DNA of 64,000 bases from Candidatus Latescibacterota bacterium (lineage in GTDB: Bacteria; Latescibacterota; UBA2968; UBA8231), in contig CBDETK010000013.1 of NCBI GenBank assembly GCA_965242865.1, positions 4,672,001 to 4,736,000 of the forward strand, given 5' to 3'. The first letter of the stretch is position 1, and each line of letters starts with the position of its first letter. Positions 32,481-39,619 of the stretch are shown here, in pieces. Under the pieces are notes generated by a model, which saw only the letters and a program-made list of their open reading frames with translations, was not told the DNA's origin and searched no databases. Made by a program: the position numbers and the translations under genes.

Positions 32481-32642
32481 ATCGGAGGCCGAGGGGCATG
32501 TGGGCTTTGCATCAGGGAGACCCAGAACCAATGGTTAATAAGCAAGGACGCACAGGAAAATGGTAAGGCGGCAATCGCCGCCAGCGGCCAAGCGCGGCTA
32601 CGTGCTCGCAACGAGCGGCGGCATGGCAAAGCACAATAGCCA

Positions 32643-32671
32643 TTGCCGCACTTGAGACCGCGTCCTATCTT
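32643..32671 (+). promoter_or_regulatory. Sigma70-like promoter of ankyrin gene 1
   Basis: TTGCCG-N17-TATCTT; a homologous copy lies at 35619-35646. Confidence 0.55.
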
Positions 32672-32708
32672 GGAGTATCCATCTAAAACCCACCACAAGA
32701 AGGACTTT

Positions 32709-34532
32709 ATGAACTCGTTTTTCAGCATGACCCGAATCGCCGGAATCGCCGCGGCGTGTCTGGCGGTCGTACTGGCCGGTTGTGGCAAAGAACACAACCC
32801 CACGGCGGCCCAACCCGTGGTCACGGCCAACCCGGCCCAACCCGTGGCCAAGCAAGCCAGCATGACGCCCGAACAAGCCCGGGCGGAGATTGACCGGCGC
32901 GAAATTCCTTATGCGGACTGGGCGTTTCTGTTGTACGCGCAAATGGGCAATCTGGAGGTTGTCAAGCTATTCCTTGCCGCGGGGATGGCGATTGAAACGA
33001 AAAACCCGACCGATCACTTTACCGCGTTGCACACGGCGGCGACCTATGGGCATTTGGCGGTAGTCAAGTATCTGGTAGGGCAATCGGCCACGGTGGACGC
33101 CAAAGGCAAGAACGGAGAAACGCCTCTTCAGTGGGCGGCGTTCAATGGGCATTTGGAGATCGTCAAGTATTTAGAGGAGCAAGGGGCCGACCTGTTAGCA
33201 GAAACGACCCGCGGCGATAGGGCGAAAGACTTGGCCGAACAAGGCGGGTTTACGGCGGTCGTAACGTTTCTCCAAGGTCAAGAAAAATGGAGGTTTGTAG
33301 GGGCGGCACAGGTTGGCAACCTTGAACGTGTCAAGGCATTTGTAGCGGCGGGCATGTCGGTTGACGCGTGGGAAGGCCACTTCGGCCTTACCGCCCTTCA
33401 CAGGGCGGCGCAGGGTGGTCATTTGGAGATCGTCAAGTATTTAGTGGGGCAAGGGGCCAGCCTAACGGCGACGGACAACTACGGCCATACCGCCCTTCAC
33501 AAGGCGGCGGGGGGTGGTCATTTGGAGATCGTCAAGTATTTAGTGGGGCAAGGAGCCAGCCTAACGGCGACGAACAACTACGGCCATACCGCCCTTCACT
33601 ATGCGGCGGGGGGTGGTCATTTGGAGATCGTCAAGTATTTAGTGGGGCAAGGGGCCAGCCTAACGGCGACGAACATCGGCGGCAATACCGCCCTTCACTT
33701 TGCGGCGCGGCATGGTGGTCATTTGGCGGTGGTGAAGTATTTAGTGGGGCAAGGAGCCAGCCTAACGGCGACGAACAACGACGGCCGGACGGCTAAAGAC
33801 CTAGCCAGCTCCTGGACCGGGGGCAGGGGTGCCGTCGTAGAATATCTCTCTGGTCAAGAAGAAAAGCAATTTCGTGCGGCGGCAGGGGCTGGCAACCTTG
33901 AGCGTGTCAAGGAATATGTAGCGGCGGGCGTGGCGATTGACGCTAAGAGCACCACCTACGGCTGGACCGCCCTTCACGCGGCGACGTGGGCGAATTATGG
34001 TGGTTTGGCGGTGGTCCAGTATCTGAAAGAGCAAGGGGCCAGCCTAACGGCGACGAACAACGCCGGCGGTAACGCCCTTCACACGGCGACGCAACGTGGT
34101 CATTTGAAGATCGTCAAGTATTTAGTGGAGCAAGGGGCCAGCCTAACGGCGACGGACAACTACGGCCAGACCGTCCTTCACACGGCGGCGCTGGATGTGG
34201 CGTTGGTCCAGTATCTGAAAGAGCAAGGGGCCAGCCTAACGGCGACGAACAACGACGGCCAGACCGTCCTTCACAAGGCGGCGGCTAATGGTGTTTTGGC
34301 GGTGGTCCAGTATCTGAAAGAGCAAGGGGCCAGCCTAACGGCGACGAACAACCGCGGCTGGACCGCCCTTCACTCGGCGGCGACCTATGGTAGTTTGGCG
34401 GTGGTCCAGTATTTAGTGGGGCAAGGGGCCAGCGTTACGACGGCGGACAACCGCGGCGAGACCGCTAAAGACTTGGCCAGCATCGGAGGCCATACCGACA
34501 TCGTGGAGTATTTGGAGTCGGTCGGCGGGTAG
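32709..34532 (+). CDS. Ankyrin-repeat lipoprotein 1 (three capped ankyrin modules)
   Basis: LAGC lipobox; repeats G.TALH.AA..GHL.(I/V)V.YLVGQGASLTAT; ends VEYLESVGG*. Confidence 0.93.
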   Translation: MNSFFSMTRIAGIAAACLAVVLAGCGKEHNPTAAQPVVTANPAQPVAKQASMTPEQARAEIDRREIPYADWAFLLYAQMGNLEVVKLFLAAGMAIETKNPTDHFTALHTAATYGHLAVVKYLVGQSATVDAKGKNGETPLQWAAFNGHLEIVKYLEEQGADLLAETTRGDRAKDLAEQGGFTAVVTFLQGQEKWRFVGAAQVGNLERVKAFVAAGMSVDAWEGHFGLTALHRAAQGGHLEIVKYLVGQGASLTATDNYGHTALHKAAGGGHLEIVKYLVGQGASLTATNNYGHTALHYAAGGGHLEIVKYLVGQGASLTATNIGGNTALHFAARHGGHLAVVKYLVGQGASLTATNNDGRTAKDLASSWTGGRGAVVEYLSGQEEKQFRAAAGAGNLERVKEYVAAGVAIDAKSTTYGWTALHAATWANYGGLAVVQYLKEQGASLTATNNAGGNALHTATQRGHLKIVKYLVEQGASLTATDNYGQTVLHTAALDVALVQYLKEQGASLTATNNDGQTVLHKAAANGVLAVVQYLKEQGASLTATNNRGWTALHSAATYGSLAVVQYLVGQGASVTTADNRGETAKDLASIGGHTDIVEYLESVGG

Positions 34533-34559
34533 CGCGTCCCTTTCGTCAAGCAGTAGGTT

Positions 34560-34599
34560 GGGCGGCAGTCGGTTCGGTTCGGGTGTCGCCCTTTTTTTT
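34560..34599 (+). terminator. Intrinsic terminator between ankyrin genes 1 and 2
   Basis: gggcggca...tgtcgccc GC stem followed by T8. Confidence 0.75.
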
Positions 34600-34631
34600 G
34601 GGTGCTGGGGTCGTCAAATAGGAGATTTAGG

Positions 34632-35252
34632 ATGCGCTTTTTGGTGCTCTTGGTTGGTTGGGCCGCGGCGGTGGGCTGCGGCGAGCTCGCCCTTCACGTG
34701 GCGGCGCGGAGTGGTTCTTTGGCGGTGGTCCAGTATTTAGTGGGGCAAGGGGCCAGCCTAACGGCAACGGACAACCTAGGCCGTACCGCCCTTCACGGGG
34801 CGGCGCGTTTTGGTCATTTGGCGGTGGTGGAGTGTTTAGTGGGGCAAGGGGCCAGCCTAACGGCGACGGACAACGACGGCGATACCGCCCTTCACTTGGC
34901 GGCGCTTTATGGTAGTTTGGAGATGGTCCAGTATTTAGTGGGGCAAGGAGCCAGCGTTACGGCGACGGACAACCTAGGCCGTACCGCCCTTCACTTGGCG
35001 GCGCTTTATGGTGGTTTGGAGATGGTCCAGTATTTAGTGGGGCAAGGAGCCAGCGTTACGGCGACGGACAACCTAGGCCGTACCGCCCTTCACTTGGCGG
35101 CGCTTTATGGTGATTTGGCGGTGGTGGAGTATTTAGTGGGGCAAGGAGCCAGCGTTACGGCGACGAACTCCTACGGCCGGACCGCTAAAGACTTGGCCAG
35201 CAGGAAGGGCCATACCGCCATCGTGGAGTATTTGGAGTCGGTTGGCGGGTAG
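34632..35252 (+). CDS. Ankyrin-repeat lipoprotein 2 (no N-cap)
   Basis: AGGAG RBS; MRFLVLLVGWAAAVGC; ~5 repeats; VEYLESVGG*. Confidence 0.9.
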   Translation: MRFLVLLVGWAAAVGCGELALHVAARSGSLAVVQYLVGQGASLTATDNLGRTALHGAARFGHLAVVECLVGQGASLTATDNDGDTALHLAALYGSLEMVQYLVGQGASVTATDNLGRTALHLAALYGGLEMVQYLVGQGASVTATDNLGRTALHLAALYGDLAVVEYLVGQGASVTATNSYGRTAKDLASRKGHTAIVEYLESVGG

Positions 35253-35598
35253 CGTCCCAGCGAACAAAGCAAGTTGGGCGGCAGCTGGGGGCGTAAAAAT
35301 CGCTTACGGGTCAAAAAACAGATAGCAAATTGCCGCGGCGTTGCCGCCGGTGACCGTGGCCACGGTGTCGATTGCCGAAGTGGGCGCGGTATCGGCTGCC
35401 GAAGTGGGGCGCGTGGACGTGGGCGCGGTGACCGTGATCACGGTGTCGCTTGCCGACGTGGGGCGCGTGGGCGTTACCGATTGGGGCCGTTTTTGTGCAA
35501 AAAGTCGTCACTTGACCGAGCGGTTCAGGCCCATAAAGGGCCATTCGGTACAGGGTTCCCTTGACCTATGGGCCGTGCAACGGCGAGTCTTGGGCGGC

Positions 35599-35710
35599 AT
35601 GGCAAGGCACAATAGCGATTGACGCACTGAGAGTGCGCCCTAGCTTGGAGTATCCGCCTAAAACCCATCACAAGAAGGATTTTATGAACTCGTTTTTCAG
35701 CATGACCCGA
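35599..35710 (+). repeat. Duplicated promoter plus first 9 codons of ankyrin gene 1, placed before gene 3
   Basis: Aligns with ~32623-32735 (atggcaa.gcacaatagc...atgaactcgtttttcagcatgacccga); promoter TTGACG-N16-TAGCTT. Confidence 0.85.
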
Positions 35711-35744
35711 GGGTCCCTTGACCTATTCACTTAGGAGCTTTGGT

Positions 35745-37112
35745 ATGCGCTTTTTGATTTTTGTGTTGGTTGGCTTGGTGTTGGGGTGTGGGGACGGTCC
35801 GCTCTCTCCTATAGAAGAAATAGAGACAAAGGAGGCTCTGCGGAATGCTGCGAGGAATGGTGATTTGGCGAAGGTCAAGCGGCTTATTAAGAGGTTTCCT
35901 AAGACAGATCGGGAAGCGGTGAGAGAGGAGGCGTTGCGTCCGGCGGCTGAAGGGGGTCATTTGGATGTGGTTCGTTTTTTGGTGGAGCAGGGTGCGAACG
36001 TCAACGCTCATTCGGAAAAAGGCTGGACGGCGTTGCATCGGGCGGCGGGGGAAGGTCATTTGGATGTGGTTCGTTTTTTGGTGGAGCAGGGTGCGAACGT
36101 CAACGCTCATTTGAATGGCGGCTGGACGGCGTTGCATCGGGCGGCTGAAGGGGGTCATTTGGATGTGGTTCGTTTTTTGGTGGAGCAGGGTGCGAACGTC
36201 AACGCTGATTCGAGAAACGGCTGGACGGCGTTGCATCGGGCGGCTGAAGGGGGTCATTTGGATGTGGTTCGTTTTTTGGTGGAGCAGGGTGCGAAAGTGT
36301 TTATGAGGGGCACGACGTCATACAACGCGGGCGGCGAGGATATCTTAGCGGGGGTTTTCCTCGACGTTCTAACTGGCTTTGCGTTTAATTTTACTGGTCG
36401 TGCGGCAAATTCGAGAGAGAAGAGGTTTGACTCCTGGACGGCCAGAGACTTGGCACAGCGTAAAGGTCATAGGGAGGTGGTGGCTTACTTCGATTTGATT
36501 GACGATTGGGCAACGCAGTGGGCAACGCAGTCGACGGTGTTTCTTGATGCGGCGAGGGCGGGCAACTTGGAAGTCGTCAAGCAAATCGTGGAGGCGGGCA
36601 TGGGCATGGGCATGCCCATTGACGCGACGGACGCCTTTGACAATACCGCCCTTCACTTGGCGGCGGAGGGTGGTCATTTGGCGGTGGTGGAGTATTTAGT
36701 GGGGCAAGGGGCCAGCCTAACGGCAACGAACAACCTAGGCTATACCGCCTTTCACAGGGCGGCGGCGGGTGGTGATTTGGCGGTGGTGGAGTATTTAGTG
36801 GGGCAAGGGGCCAGCCTAACGGCGACGACCTACAGCGGCCGTACCGCCCTTCACTTGGCGGCGGAGGGTGGTCATTTGGCGGTGGTGGAGTATTTAGTGG
36901 GGCAAGGGGCCAGCCTAACGGCGACGAACTACTGGGGCGAGACCGCCCTTCACTTGGCGGCGGAGGGTGGTCATTTGGCGGTGGTGGAGTATTTAGTGGG
37001 GCAAGGAGCCAGCGTTACGGCGACGGACGACAGCGGCCGTACCGCTAAAGACTGGGCCAGTGACCGCGGCCATACCGACGTCGTGGAGTATTTGGAGTCG
37101 GTCGGCGGGTAG
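35745..37112 (+). CDS. Ankyrin-repeat lipoprotein 3 (chimera of two repeat lineages)
   Basis: VLGC lipobox; N-half GHLDVVRFLVEQGANVNA repeats; C-half GHLAVVEYLVGQGASLT repeats; VEYLESVGG*. Confidence 0.92.
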   Translation: MRFLIFVLVGLVLGCGDGPLSPIEEIETKEALRNAARNGDLAKVKRLIKRFPKTDREAVREEALRPAAEGGHLDVVRFLVEQGANVNAHSEKGWTALHRAAGEGHLDVVRFLVEQGANVNAHLNGGWTALHRAAEGGHLDVVRFLVEQGANVNADSRNGWTALHRAAEGGHLDVVRFLVEQGAKVFMRGTTSYNAGGEDILAGVFLDVLTGFAFNFTGRAANSREKRFDSWTARDLAQRKGHREVVAYFDLIDDWATQWATQSTVFLDAARAGNLEVVKQIVEAGMGMGMPIDATDAFDNTALHLAAEGGHLAVVEYLVGQGASLTATNNLGYTAFHRAAAGGDLAVVEYLVGQGASLTATTYSGRTALHLAAEGGHLAVVEYLVGQGASLTATNYWGETALHLAAEGGHLAVVEYLVGQGASVTATDDSGRTAKDWASDRGHTDVVEYLESVGG

Positions 37113-37130
37113 CTTGCCGGCGAATAAGTT

Positions 37131-37170
37131 GGGCGGCACTCGGTTCGGTTCGGGTGTCGCCCTTTTTTTT
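37131..37170 (+). terminator. Intrinsic terminator between ankyrin genes 3 and 4
   Basis: gggcggcactcgg/tcgggtgtcgccc stem plus T8; copy of 34560-34599. Confidence 0.8.
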
Positions 37171-37202
37171 GGGTGCTGGGGTCGTCAAATAGGAGATTTA
37201 GG

Positions 37203-37724
37203 ATGCGCTTTTTGGTGCTCTTGGTTGGTTGGGCCGCGGCGGTGGGCTGCGGCGAGCTCGCCCTTCACGTGGCGGCGCGGGGTGGTTCTTTGGCGGTGGT
37301 CCAGTATTTAGTGGGGCAAGGGGCCAGCCTAACGGCAACGGACAACCTAGGCCGTACCGCCCTTCACAAGGCGGCGGAGCGTGGTCATTTGGCGGTGGTG
37401 GAGTGTTTAGTGGGGCAAGGGGCCAGCCTAACGGCGACGGACAACTACGGCGATACCGTCCTTCACTATGCGGCGTTTTATGGTCATTTGGCGGTGGTGG
37501 AGTATTTAGTGGGGCAAGGGGCCAGCCTAACGACGACGAACAACGACGGCAATACCGTCCTTCACTATGCGGCAAGGCGTGGTCATTTGGCGGTGGTGGA
37601 GTATTTAGTGGGGCAAGGGGTCAGCGTTACGGCGACGAACAACGACGGCCGTACCGCTAAAGGCGAAGCCAGCCGCAACGGCCGTACCGACGTCGTGGCG
37701 TATTTGGAGTCGGTTGGCGGGTAG
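37203..37724 (+). CDS. Ankyrin-repeat lipoprotein 4 (no N-cap)
   Basis: 5' end nearly identical to gene 2; ~4 repeats; VAYLESVGG*. Confidence 0.9.
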   Translation: MRFLVLLVGWAAAVGCGELALHVAARGGSLAVVQYLVGQGASLTATDNLGRTALHKAAERGHLAVVECLVGQGASLTATDNYGDTVLHYAAFYGHLAVVEYLVGQGASLTTTNNDGNTVLHYAARRGHLAVVEYLVGQGVSVTATNNDGRTAKGEASRNGRTDVVAYLESVGG

Positions 37725-38047
37725 CGTCCCAGCGAACAAAGCAAGTTGGGCGGCAGCTGGGGGCGTAAAAATCGCTTACGGGTCAAAAAACAGATAGCAA
37801 ATTGCCGCGGCGTTGCCGCCGGTGACCGCGGTCACGGTGTCGATTGCCGCGGTGGACGTGGCCGCGGTGGACGTCTTGGGGCGCGTGGACATGGCCGAAG
37901 TGGGCCGTTTTTGTGCAAAAAGGCTGCACTTGGCCAATCGGTTTTGGCCCATAACGGGCCGTTTGGTACAGGGTTCCCTTGACCTATGGGCCGTGCAACG
38001 GCGAGTCTTGGGCGGCTTTACTCACTCTTTCACTTAGGAGATTTAGG

Positions 38048-39028
38048 ATGCGCTTTTTGGTGCTCTTGGTTGGTTTGGCCGCGGCGGTGGGCTGCGGCGA
38101 GCGGTCTATGCCGGCGGTCGGAGATAGCACGGCGGCGGCGGCGGATACGCTGGCGCAAGCGGCGGCGGCGGCGTTTCTGGCGGCGGCAGAGGCTGGCAAC
38201 CTTGAAAATGTCAAGGAATATGTAGCGGCGGGCGTGGCGATTGACGCTTCGGACACCGACGGCTTTACCGCCCTTCACTTTGCGGCGGCTGATGGTCATT
38301 TGGCGGTGGTCCAGTATCTGAAAGAGCAAGGGGCCAGCCTAACGGCGACGAACATCGACGGCGATACCGCCCTTCACTTTGCGGCGTGGCATGGTCATTT
38401 GGCGGTGGTGGAGTATTTAGTGGGGCAAGGGGCCAGCCTAACGGCAAAGGACAACAGCGGCGAGACCGCCCTTCACTCTGCGGCGTTTTTTGGTCATTTG
38501 GCGGTGGTGGAGTATTTAGTGGGGCAAGGGGCCAGCGTTACGACGGCGGACACCGACGGCTTTACCGTCCTTCACTGGGCGGCGTTTCGTGGTCATTTGG
38601 CGGTGGTCCAGTATCTGAAAGAGCAAGGGGCCAGCGTTACGACGAACATCGACGGCGAGACCGTCCTTCACTCTGCGGCGTTTTTTGGTCATTTGGCGGT
38701 GGTGGAGTATTTAGTGGGGCAAGGGGCCAGCCTAACGGCGACGACCACCAGCGGCGAGACCGCCCTTCACTTTGCGGCGTTTAATGGTCATTTGGCGGTG
38801 GTGGAGTATTTAGTGGGGCAAGGGGCCAGCCTAACGGCGACGACCACCAGAGGCTTTACCGTCCTTCACGGGGCGGCGTTTCGTGGTCATTTGGCGGTGG
38901 TGGAGTATTTAGTGGGGCAAGGGGCCAGCGTTACGACGGCGGACAACGACGGCGATACCGCTAAAGACTTGGCCAGCATCGGAGGCCATACCGACGTCGT
39001 GGAGTATTTGGAGTCGGTTGGCGGGTAG
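38048..39028 (+). CDS. Ankyrin-repeat lipoprotein 5
   Basis: MRFLVLLVGLAAAVGC, Ala-rich linker, N-cap, ~7 repeats, C-cap; VEYLESVGG*. Confidence 0.92.
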   Translation: MRFLVLLVGLAAAVGCGERSMPAVGDSTAAAADTLAQAAAAAFLAAAEAGNLENVKEYVAAGVAIDASDTDGFTALHFAAADGHLAVVQYLKEQGASLTATNIDGDTALHFAAWHGHLAVVEYLVGQGASLTAKDNSGETALHSAAFFGHLAVVEYLVGQGASVTTADTDGFTVLHWAAFRGHLAVVQYLKEQGASVTTNIDGETVLHSAAFFGHLAVVEYLVGQGASLTATTTSGETALHFAAFNGHLAVVEYLVGQGASLTATTTRGFTVLHGAAFRGHLAVVEYLVGQGASVTTADNDGDTAKDLASIGGHTDVVEYLESVGG

Positions 39029-39232
39029 CGTCCCAGCGAACAAAGCAAGTTGGGCGGCAGCTGGGGGCGTAAAAATCGCTTACGGGTCAAGGCGCATAAG
39101 TGATTTTGGTCTCTGGCGTGGCTTTAGCGGGTGCTCGATTGTGCGAATTGTGCGAATTGTGGCTTTTTTTGCGGTCTTGGGCGGCCCAATGCGTTTTGAG
39201 TTCGGCCAGCACGTCAAAATCTTCGGGGGGCG

Positions 39233-39308
39233 GCAATTTGCTATCTGTTGGTTCTGCTTTCTTCTCAGAACGTTCTTTGGTGGGCGGTATTAACAGATAG
39301 CAAATTGC
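39233..39308. repeat. Perfect 17-bp inverted repeat with 42-bp spacer; one arm also at 35317-35333 and 37789-37805
   Basis: GCAATTTGCTATCTGTT (39233-39249) / AACAGATAGCAAATTGC (39292-39308). Confidence 0.85.
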
Positions 39309-39619
39309 GGCGGCTGGCGGGTATAGCGTGGGGCGCGGGCGCGGGCGGACGATGCGTTGGCGCGTGGCTTGCACGGTGCTGAACGGGGTAGCGAGGTAGG
39401 CTTGTATGGACCGTTCGGAACGCCCAAGCGCGGCGGCTATTTGCTTGGTGGATAGGCCGGCCCGTCTTAGGGCGTGGGCGCGGTAGGCGTGGGCGTTGGC
39501 TTGCTTGCCGCGGCGAGCGGAGCGGCGATTGCCCTTTGCTTTTTCCGTGAGCGGCCAACTGCGGCGCGGCGACTGCCGGCGGACGAAATCGCACGCCTGT
39601 TTGCCTAACGCCGGCTACC

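Follow-up and report, generated by a model that had tools for sequence, protein, structure and literature searches.

Near-identical ankyrin repeats with a hypervariable predicted binding face in a lipoprotein gene family of a Latescibacterota bacterium

The 64,000-nt stretch of DNA analysed here (the window) comes from Candidatus Latescibacterota bacterium (assembly GCA_965242865.1, contig CBDETK010000013.1, positions 4,672,001 to 4,736,000 of the forward strand) and contains, at window positions 32709 – 39028, five same-strand (+) open reading frames (ORFs), genes A – E, all predicted from sequence to encode ankyrin lipoproteins. Their 99-bp repeat units share an almost invariant framework and diverge strongly at seven codons. 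We consider it probable that the genes belong to a lineage-specific multigene family of ankyrin lipoproteins that is subject to concerted evolution and, on its binding face, to diversifying selection. Recombination, by gain and loss of units, unequal crossing-over, and gene conversion both inside a paralog and from one to another, would keep the units near-identical, and diversifying selection would drive seven residues per unit apart. Each protein would be exported by means of a type-II signal peptide and lipidated at the lipobox Cys; its ankyrin solenoid would then fold to present a concave face with different side chains in each repeat and paralog, and the paralogs together would form a repertoire of binders. 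As has been suggested for ankyrin 'eukaryotic-like proteins' in sponge symbionts, the likeliest ligands would be proteins of the host or of other eukaryotes. The sequence data show the layout of genes and units, an excess of amino-acid change at specific sites, traces of recombination, and no diversity-generating retroelement; in this scheme we infer export, lipidation, the compartment faced, the ligand, and selection rather than a mutator as the source of diversity.

Ankyrin units and their variable codons

All five proteins match Pfam ankyrin families (Ank, Ank_2, Ank_4) above the curated cut-off, with Ank_2 E-values of 5.5e-43 to 2.7e-136 and scores of 145.9 – 445 bits against a cut-off of 27.3. 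No other Pfam family, and no nucleotide-binding oligomerisation domain (NOD; NACHT or NB-ARC), reaches its cut-off in them. At its N-terminus every protein also has a short positively charged segment, then a hydrophobic stretch and a lipobox whose Cys lies at residue 15 – 25. The lipobox was detected with a regular expression patterned on the PROSITE rule, requiring the Cys within about 35 residues. Gene starts were placed at the ATG downstream of a Shine-Dalgarno-like AGGAG (AAGGA in gene A), a combination that precedes the lipobox leader in all five genes. The first-pass annotation, made from the DNA letters, had listed five lipoprotein genes, and leader and ankyrin matches agree in five of five. 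Its term 'surface-displayed' was deduced from the lipobox alone, and anchoring in the periplasm is equally possible.

Tandem Repeats Finder reports six period-99 arrays, at 33383 – 33786, 34004 – 34465, 34688 – 35185, 35930 – 36295, 36644 – 37657, and 38253 – 38961. A motif scan counts 36 ankyrin units (12 + 5 + 7 + 4 + 8 over the five genes), and a DNA profile of the unit finds 32 matches within them. Of these matches, 29 score at least 60 and make up one tight family of 99-bp units, which agrees with the ~30 near-identical units announced earlier. Four units are of a separate or divergent type: A153, and C97, C130 and C163 in gene C at 36009 – 36305. The tight DNA family extends to other parts of the 5.6-Mb contig, mainly to frames of 671 codons at 1.22 Mb and 795 codons at 1.73 Mb, both paralogs of gene A, and to a single unit at 4.03 Mb; weaker relatives of the unit occur at four further loci. 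Genome-wide there are 93 unit-like DNA matches, all at ankyrin-coding loci, and 114 matches to Ank_2.

Codons are numbered here from the T of TDNxGxTALH in the 33-residue unit. Among 27 in-register units, amino-acid entropy is 2.1 – 3.2 bits at codons 2, 3, 4, 6, 11, 14, and 15 and at most 1.8 bits at all others; per-site entropy thus singles out exactly the positions that had been named as hypervariable. In the 24 tight-family units of the window, the proportions of nonsynonymous (pN) and synonymous (pS) differences are 0.562 and 0.232 at the seven variable codons and 0.093 and 0.116 at the 26 framework codons. Nonsynonymous difference at the seven codons is therefore about five times the synonymous difference of the framework (0.56 vs 0.116). 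The 17 units outside the window behave alike, with dN/dS of 3.1 at variable codons and 0.42 in the framework. At 17 of the 26 framework codons the 24 window units show no synonymous difference at all, in line with the near-invariance, synonymous sites included, that was first described. Its Leu codons are TTA and CTT, and the G+C content of the flanks is about 62 – 70%. TTA and CTT are unusual choices for Leu in a genome of such composition; their fixation is better explained by recent descent or homogenisation than by codon preference.

The position of the variable residues was examined in an AlphaFold2 model of the protein encoded by gene E (38048 – 39028, + strand; 326 aa, seven tight-family units and a C-cap). 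The model has a mean predicted local distance difference test score (pLDDT) of 87.8 and paired helices every 33 residues; residues 1 – 45 of the 349-aa ORF, including the leader, are disordered. Codons 8 – 15 form helix 1, on which codons 11, 14, and 15 are spaced i, i+3, i+4, and codons 2 – 6 form the preceding turn. In the model the seven variable codons thus lie on the classical concave binding face, four in the β-turn (2, 3, 4, 6) and three in helix 1 (11, 14, 15). Foldseek aligns the model with ankyrin and designed ankyrin repeat protein (DARPin) structures at a probability of 1.00. The best matches are designed DARPin fusions, and ANK-N5C (4o60_A) superimposes with a template-modelling score (TMt) of 0.91 and a root-mean-square deviation of 1.2; these top fold matches share 38 – 44% identity with gene E. 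By sequence, the best matches in the Protein Data Bank are ankyrin-1/2 and DARPin fusions.

The ANK-N5C library was randomised at positions 2, 3, 5, 10, 13, and 33 (PMC4308713). With an assumed offset of one between those positions and our codon numbers, five of these six are among the seven most variable of the 33 codons (hypergeometric P ~5e-4, calculated by hand), in line with the suggestion that variation falls on positions randomised in designed ankyrin libraries. The genes resemble such libraries in their consensus-like 33-residue framework and in the restriction of diversity to the β-turn and helix 1. Unlike in the libraries, diversity here is natural, non-uniform, and derived from mutation and recombination. 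Codon 2 varies as well (D/N/T), whereas the equivalent of ANK-N5C position 33, just before the start of the repeat, is T in most units. The residues G, P, and W are admitted, the caps are of another kind, and a lipid anchor is predicted. The family behaves like a natural designed-ankyrin library, with a stable framework, seven diversified contacts per repeat, and many repeats and paralogs.

Probable concerted evolution and diversification of the repeats

Variable codons and framework have diverged independently of each other. Unit pairs with 0 – 1 differences in the 78 framework nucleotides already differ at 7 – 17 of the 21 variable nucleotides, and where the two frameworks are the same, the counts are 7 and 11. 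The mean stays at ~10 variable-nucleotide differences in every class of framework distance from 0 to 11. Divergence at the variable codons is saturated, whatever the divergence of the framework.

Gene A (32709 – 34532, +) encodes a 607-aa ankyrin lipoprotein with the leader MNSFFSMTRIAGIAAACLAVVLAGC, three ankyrin blocks separated by linkers, and nine tight-family units. Comparison with its 1.22-Mb paralog gives a pS of 0.44 – 0.84 in linker and cap windows and 0.07 – 0.25 in repeat windows. By this measure the repeats are of far more recent origin than the genes around them, as is typical of concerted evolution. Recombination has also left traces within the units. All four gametes are present in 90 of 231 pairs of polymorphic framework sites, and front cassettes (codons 2 – 6) reassort with back cassettes (codons 11 – 15), DNLGR being found with three backs and LAAEG with three fronts. 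The cassettes themselves are diverse: 36 of 43 front and 35 of 43 back cassettes are distinct, and exact 15-mer counts show that most occur once in the genome. These observations (the excess of pN over framework pS, the decoupling of variable codons from framework, the four gametes, and repeats more alike than linkers) fit gene conversion plus strong diversifying selection, one of two origins that the first-pass annotation had offered.

In their first two ankyrin blocks the genes at 1.22 and 1.73 Mb are near-identical, even at the variable codons (pS 0 – 0.06, pN 0 – 0.03). This recently duplicated part makes up the N-terminal two-thirds, and the C-terminal array differs. Unchanged variable codons in these duplicated parts argue that there is no constitutive hypermutation.

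Alternative explanations

Several points weigh against the reading of concerted evolution plus diversifying selection. Because it was their variability that led to the choice of the seven codons, their dN/dS is inflated; Nei-Gojobori counts are rough at saturated codons; and the evidence for selection consists of counting methods. At positions set beforehand from the ANK-N5C library (codons 3, 4, 6, 11, 14, and 1), pN is 0.548 as against 0.119 for the rest, a test that leans partly on the offset of one that we assume between ANK-N5C positions and our codon numbers. No strain-level orthologues were found, so that polymorphism and divergence are not comparable; the best match in a search with the gene D protein has 63% identity, and an exact framework 24-mer gave 0 matches in metagenome and in viral contig collections. 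The read evidence consists of short Logan contigs, which fragment inside the repeats and neither bear out the assembled array nor reveal variation among members of a population. A further point comes from genes B and D. Gene B (34632 – 35252, +) encodes a 206-aa ankyrin lipoprotein with five tight-family units and a C-cap, and gene D (37203 – 37724, +), which encodes a 173-aa ankyrin lipoprotein, is its recent duplicate. The two are identical from ~75 nt upstream of the ATG through unit 2 (~320 nt) save for 8 nt in four variable codons; they differ by 2 – 3 nt per codon in unit 2 and at none of ~310 other positions, non-coding ones included. The difference amounts to a patch of at most about 45 nt, and neither the B nor the D version of the 15-nt cassette occurs elsewhere in the assembly by exact 15-mer counts. 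Stepwise selection would have required at least eight hits without a neutral one, and short-patch conversion would require a donor outside this genome, perhaps in other strains.

This pattern bears on programmed segmental gene conversion of the antigenic-variation type, in which patches with variable codons would be copied between units or paralogs, with the framework as homology arms, and the repertoire would be reshuffled within a population on ecological time-scales. Antigenic variation by segmental gene conversion is known from pilE/pilS of Neisseria and vlsE of Borrelia. As there, variable mini-cassettes lie between invariant sequences that could act as homology arms, in genes for lipoproteins or surface proteins. 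The B/D patch, with 2 – 3 changes per differing codon inside ~320 identical nt, is of the expected kind, and so are the reassorting cassettes and the proportion of four-gamete pairs. Contigs of individual runs also hint at differences in unit number or gene content: one joint in run X1 steps back 99 nt at 37453, and one in run X5 skips 590 nt across gene D, although these contigs are short, the joints were called at 85% likeness, and the signal is weak. X5 derives from a diverged strain, whose cobA flank shows 12 differences over 570 nt; contigs of run X2, which may be the source sample, match the unique parts with 0 differences. Unlike in Neisseria and Borrelia, there is no single expression site with silent donors. 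Leaders and caps are intact in all five genes, so that every copy looks expressible and no archive of silent cassettes exists among them. Most cassettes are single in the genome, donors for the observed patches are absent from the assembly, and the duplicated parts of the 1.22- and 1.73-Mb genes are unchanged at their variable codons. We regard programmed conversion as unlikely, while giving it some weight.

A related idea, which we hold for an outside chance, is that an active process distinct from diversity-generating retroelements rewrites the paratope codons, so that one clonal population would contain many versions of each lipoprotein. The process could be short-patch conversion from a population-wide pool of cassettes or a site-directed mutator of an unfamiliar kind. 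What keeps this idea alive is the B/D pair, with eight changed nucleotides in four paratope codons and no donor. If it were true, the family would be a bacterial, ankyrin-based, somatically variable receptor repertoire.

It is also conceivable, but quite improbable, that the genes form a periplasmic lipoprotein immunity or decoy array whose diversity is directed at incoming toxins or phage proteins from other microbes. Other bacteria are known to have arrays of diversified immunity genes, and the predicted lipid anchor and the tandem arrangement of paralogs would suit such a role; the flanks of the array, however, contain no toxin, secretion-system or phage genes. The evolutionary mechanism would be the same as under concerted evolution with diversifying selection, and only the ligand would differ. 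On the analogies available, binding of host proteins would be the likeliest role, and a role against phages or competitors would be less likely.

Slightly less probable still is recent amplification with relaxed constraint, in which the seven surface positions would drift freely without selection for diversity. These positions are the least conserved ones in ankyrin repeats generally, and their entropy is also high in unrelated ankyrin proteins (L002, L005). Neutral sites, however, cannot outpace synonymous sites, as the seven codons do when measured against the framework; units with identical frameworks already differ at a third or more of their variable nucleotides (7 and 11 of 21). Variable-codon divergence does not scale with framework divergence, and homogenising recombination would erase neutral differences together with those of the framework.

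The third bases of the variable codons concern the other origin proposed in the first-pass annotation, DGR-like adenine mutagenesis, that is, a diversity-generating retroelement (DGR) or other templated hypermutator that would rewrite the paratope codons from an AAC/AAT-rich template. Codons 2, 3, and 15 read NNC, NNC, and NNT in 24 of 24 window units, and their amino-acid sets resemble those reachable from AAC/AAT; genome-wide, their third base is the modal one in 41/43, 43/43, and 43/43 units. At codons 4, 6, 11, and 14 the third base departs from the modal one in 33%, 25%, 33%, and 50% of the window units. The 'fixed wobble bases' reported earlier thus exist at the first three codons and not at the other four, and the accompanying statement that variation falls on codon positions 1 – 2 is borne out by entropies, summed over the seven codons, of 10.6, 10.3, and 4.4 bits at positions 1, 2, and 3. 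We compared this pattern with simulated point mutation from the modal codons, admitting amino-acid changes only, on a star tree, which overstates independence. The ratio of third- to first/second-position entropy is 0.42, and simulations at matching entropy gave 0.36 – 0.57 with 95% ranges such as 0.27 – 0.60. An invariant third base arose with P 0.06 – 0.22 at each of codons 2, 3, and 15 in 24 simulated lineages. The pattern follows from the genetic code, since a change of the third base in an NNY codon will be silent or else a rare transversion; the modal GGT of codon 15 is four-fold degenerate. A special mechanism for the fixed wobble was rejected because the ratio lies inside the simulated ranges, with at most a mild excess; the wobble pattern requires no special mutator.

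Across the whole assembly (5.99 Mb, 93.6% complete), PF00078 matched one reverse transcriptase, a 516-aa protein encoded within contig positions 5486715 – 5490128, which matches the DRT4 defence models of PADLOC with an E-value of 1.8e-152. No adenine-rich template copy was present among the unit-like DNA matches, of which four isolated copies were inspected. Framework adenines at synonymous sites (CAA, TTA, CTA) are fixed. The first-pass annotation had itself held these adenines against a classic DGR, and the absence of a reverse transcriptase that it noted for the window extends, as regards the DGR type, to the assembly. DGRs, too, concentrate variation in a handful of codons for a surface that binds ligands, and some of the variable codons here have their NNC/NNT look. 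Unlike in DGRs, variation here goes beyond template adenines, affects dozens of targets, and resides in an ankyrin fold instead of a C-type lectin or Ig fold. No DGR is known to have as many as about 30 separate target sites. We therefore rejected a DGR on the typing of the reverse transcriptase as DRT4 and the lack of a template signature; it is largely refuted, and very improbable in our estimate, with the proviso that in a 93.6%-complete assembly absence is not absolute. A 335-aa ORF adjoining the DRT4 gene weakly matches models associated with prokaryotic Argonaute proteins.

An assembly artefact, a collapsed or chimeric repeat region, is hardly credible. The region is highly repetitive and short-read contigs break within it, but none of the five ORFs is interrupted, and every one has a proper leader, units in frame, and a conserved C-cap. 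Each unit can be told apart by its variable codons, contrary to what collapse would produce. Contigs of X2, possibly the source sample, match the unique parts without differences, and the contig spans 5.6 Mb.

Relatives, known systems and the surroundings of the array

Relatives of the bacterium carry comparable families with frameworks of their own. The best match of gene E against 30 relatives has 49% identity among the matches listed, and a scan of genome contigs with gene E found 14 loci, the best at 43% identity. In all five congeners examined, the 12 kb downstream of cobA-hemD contain neither an ankyrin ORF nor an orthologue of the alcohol dehydrogenase (ADH), so that the array has no positional orthologue in those five. 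Several relatives of the same genus or class nevertheless possess ankyrin families that are conserved internally, on frameworks unlike the present one, and whose entropy peaks at these same sites; in one of them (L020) the median DNA identity of the units is 0.86. The comparison with related genomes suggested at the outset thus shows the same regime of homogenised units variable at the same positions, each relative with its own framework.

Homologues of the cobA-hemD fusion at ~60% identity belong, where named, mostly to metagenome-assembled genomes (MAGs) of Latescibacteria. Among six sequencing runs that contain the stretch, one, with near-identical pieces, is labelled sponge metagenome; its share is small (0.09) and gives a hint of habitat only. 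The bacterium is probably sponge-associated. Ankyrin 'eukaryotic-like proteins' are a textbook genomic signature of sponge symbionts, and little is known of their ligands and evolution. One study reports sponge-associated Latescibacterota MAGs with ANK eukaryotic-like proteins (PMC12993501), and another reports that single eukaryotic-like proteins let bacteria escape sponge phagocytosis (PMC13747020). The present genome resembles those of such symbionts in being ankyrin-rich (114 Ank_2 matches) and in its sponge-labelled run; the sponge-symbiont papers give domain counts and not repeat evolution. Searches of full texts, subscription journals and supplementary tables excepted, turned up no account of bacterial ankyrin proteins whose near-identical repeat DNA is hypervariable at particular codons, and none of a lipobox-anchored tandem ankyrin family.

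The closest described counterpart is the set of highly internally conserved (HIC) repeats of fungal NOD-like receptors (NLRs). Dyrka et al. (2014) describe ANK, TPR, and WD repeats of fungal NLRs (Podospora HNWD/het-e) that are >85% identical, with ankyrin repeats under positive selection at five concave-face positions and polymorphic in repeat number, and interpret the shuffling of repeats within and between loci as concerted evolution and fast diversification (PMC4986451). HIC repeats are defined there as about 85% or more identical over at least 100 aa; the tandem-repeat match here is 88 – 91% in the arrays of gene A (33383 – 33786) and gene B. Both systems combine near-identical repeats with a few hypervariable positions per repeat on the concave face, and counting methods indicate positive selection at a few binding-face positions here as well (pN 0.56 vs framework pS 0.116). 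Fungal NLRs are cytoplasmic and contain NACHT or NB-ARC and effector domains, whereas the proteins described here are bacterial, lack a NOD domain, are predicted lipoproteins, and are encoded in a tandem array. Fungal repeat-induced point mutation (RIP) plays no part here, and differences in repeat number between strains are hinted at by short contigs. The evolutionary regime would thus be that of fungal NLR recognition repeats, in a bacterial protein predicted to be lipid-anchored. The locus provides a defined set of natural binders with which ligands could be fished from a host-symbiont system. It is also a prokaryotic test case for the coupling of concerted evolution to diversifying selection, and it supplies natural data on the side chains tolerated in an ankyrin paratope.

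The array also differs internally in unit type and in its control regions. Gene C (35745 – 37112, +) encodes a 455-aa ankyrin lipoprotein with two ankyrin blocks. The first block (36009 – 36305) consists of a second, distinct type of near-identical units with the framework GHLDVVRFLVEQGANVNA, 94 – 100% identical in DNA and different mainly at codons 1 – 4 and 14 – 15; the second (36627 – 37022) comprises four tight-family units and a C-cap. Upstream of gene C lies a mosaic leader, a further trace of recombination (35664 – 35744, +), in which a remnant of the gene A 5' leader, including the first nine codons of gene A, is followed by a ribosome-binding site and start of the B/D/E type. In gene B the lipobox Cys sits within a truncated first repeat. 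A terminator-like hairpin with 13 pairs (9 G-C) and a T8 run (37131 – 37172, +) lies only ~35 nt upstream of the gene D ATG, and a near-copy lies upstream of gene B at about 34560 – 34600. Since hairpin and T8 run are so close to the ATG that there is no space for a separate promoter, expression of genes B and D may depend on read-through or on attenuation that is regulated.

The intergenic region between genes B and C contains 24-nt and 39-nt tandem repeats at 35348 – 35467, and in contigs of three runs this stretch has indels and a 79-nt skip, so that its repeat number may vary. Similar sequence lies upstream of the ankyrin gene at 4.03 Mb on the same contig, a copy that has lost the lipobox Cys. 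Two further ankyrin ORFs, at contig positions 3232159 – 3233559 and 5101079 – 5102449, carry the MRFLxLL...GC lipobox leader of genes B – E, which indicates that the leader-plus-ankyrin module is dispersed over at least three loci.

The neighbours of the array are housekeeping genes, namely hemC, cobA-hemD, an iron alcohol-dehydrogenase-like ORF, and a DUF362-like ORF. GC skew is strongly positive (+0.10 to +0.36) over the ankyrin genes (32500 – 39500) and negative in both flanks, and G+C content is 0.53 – 0.62 across the same interval compared with 0.65 – 0.73 outside.

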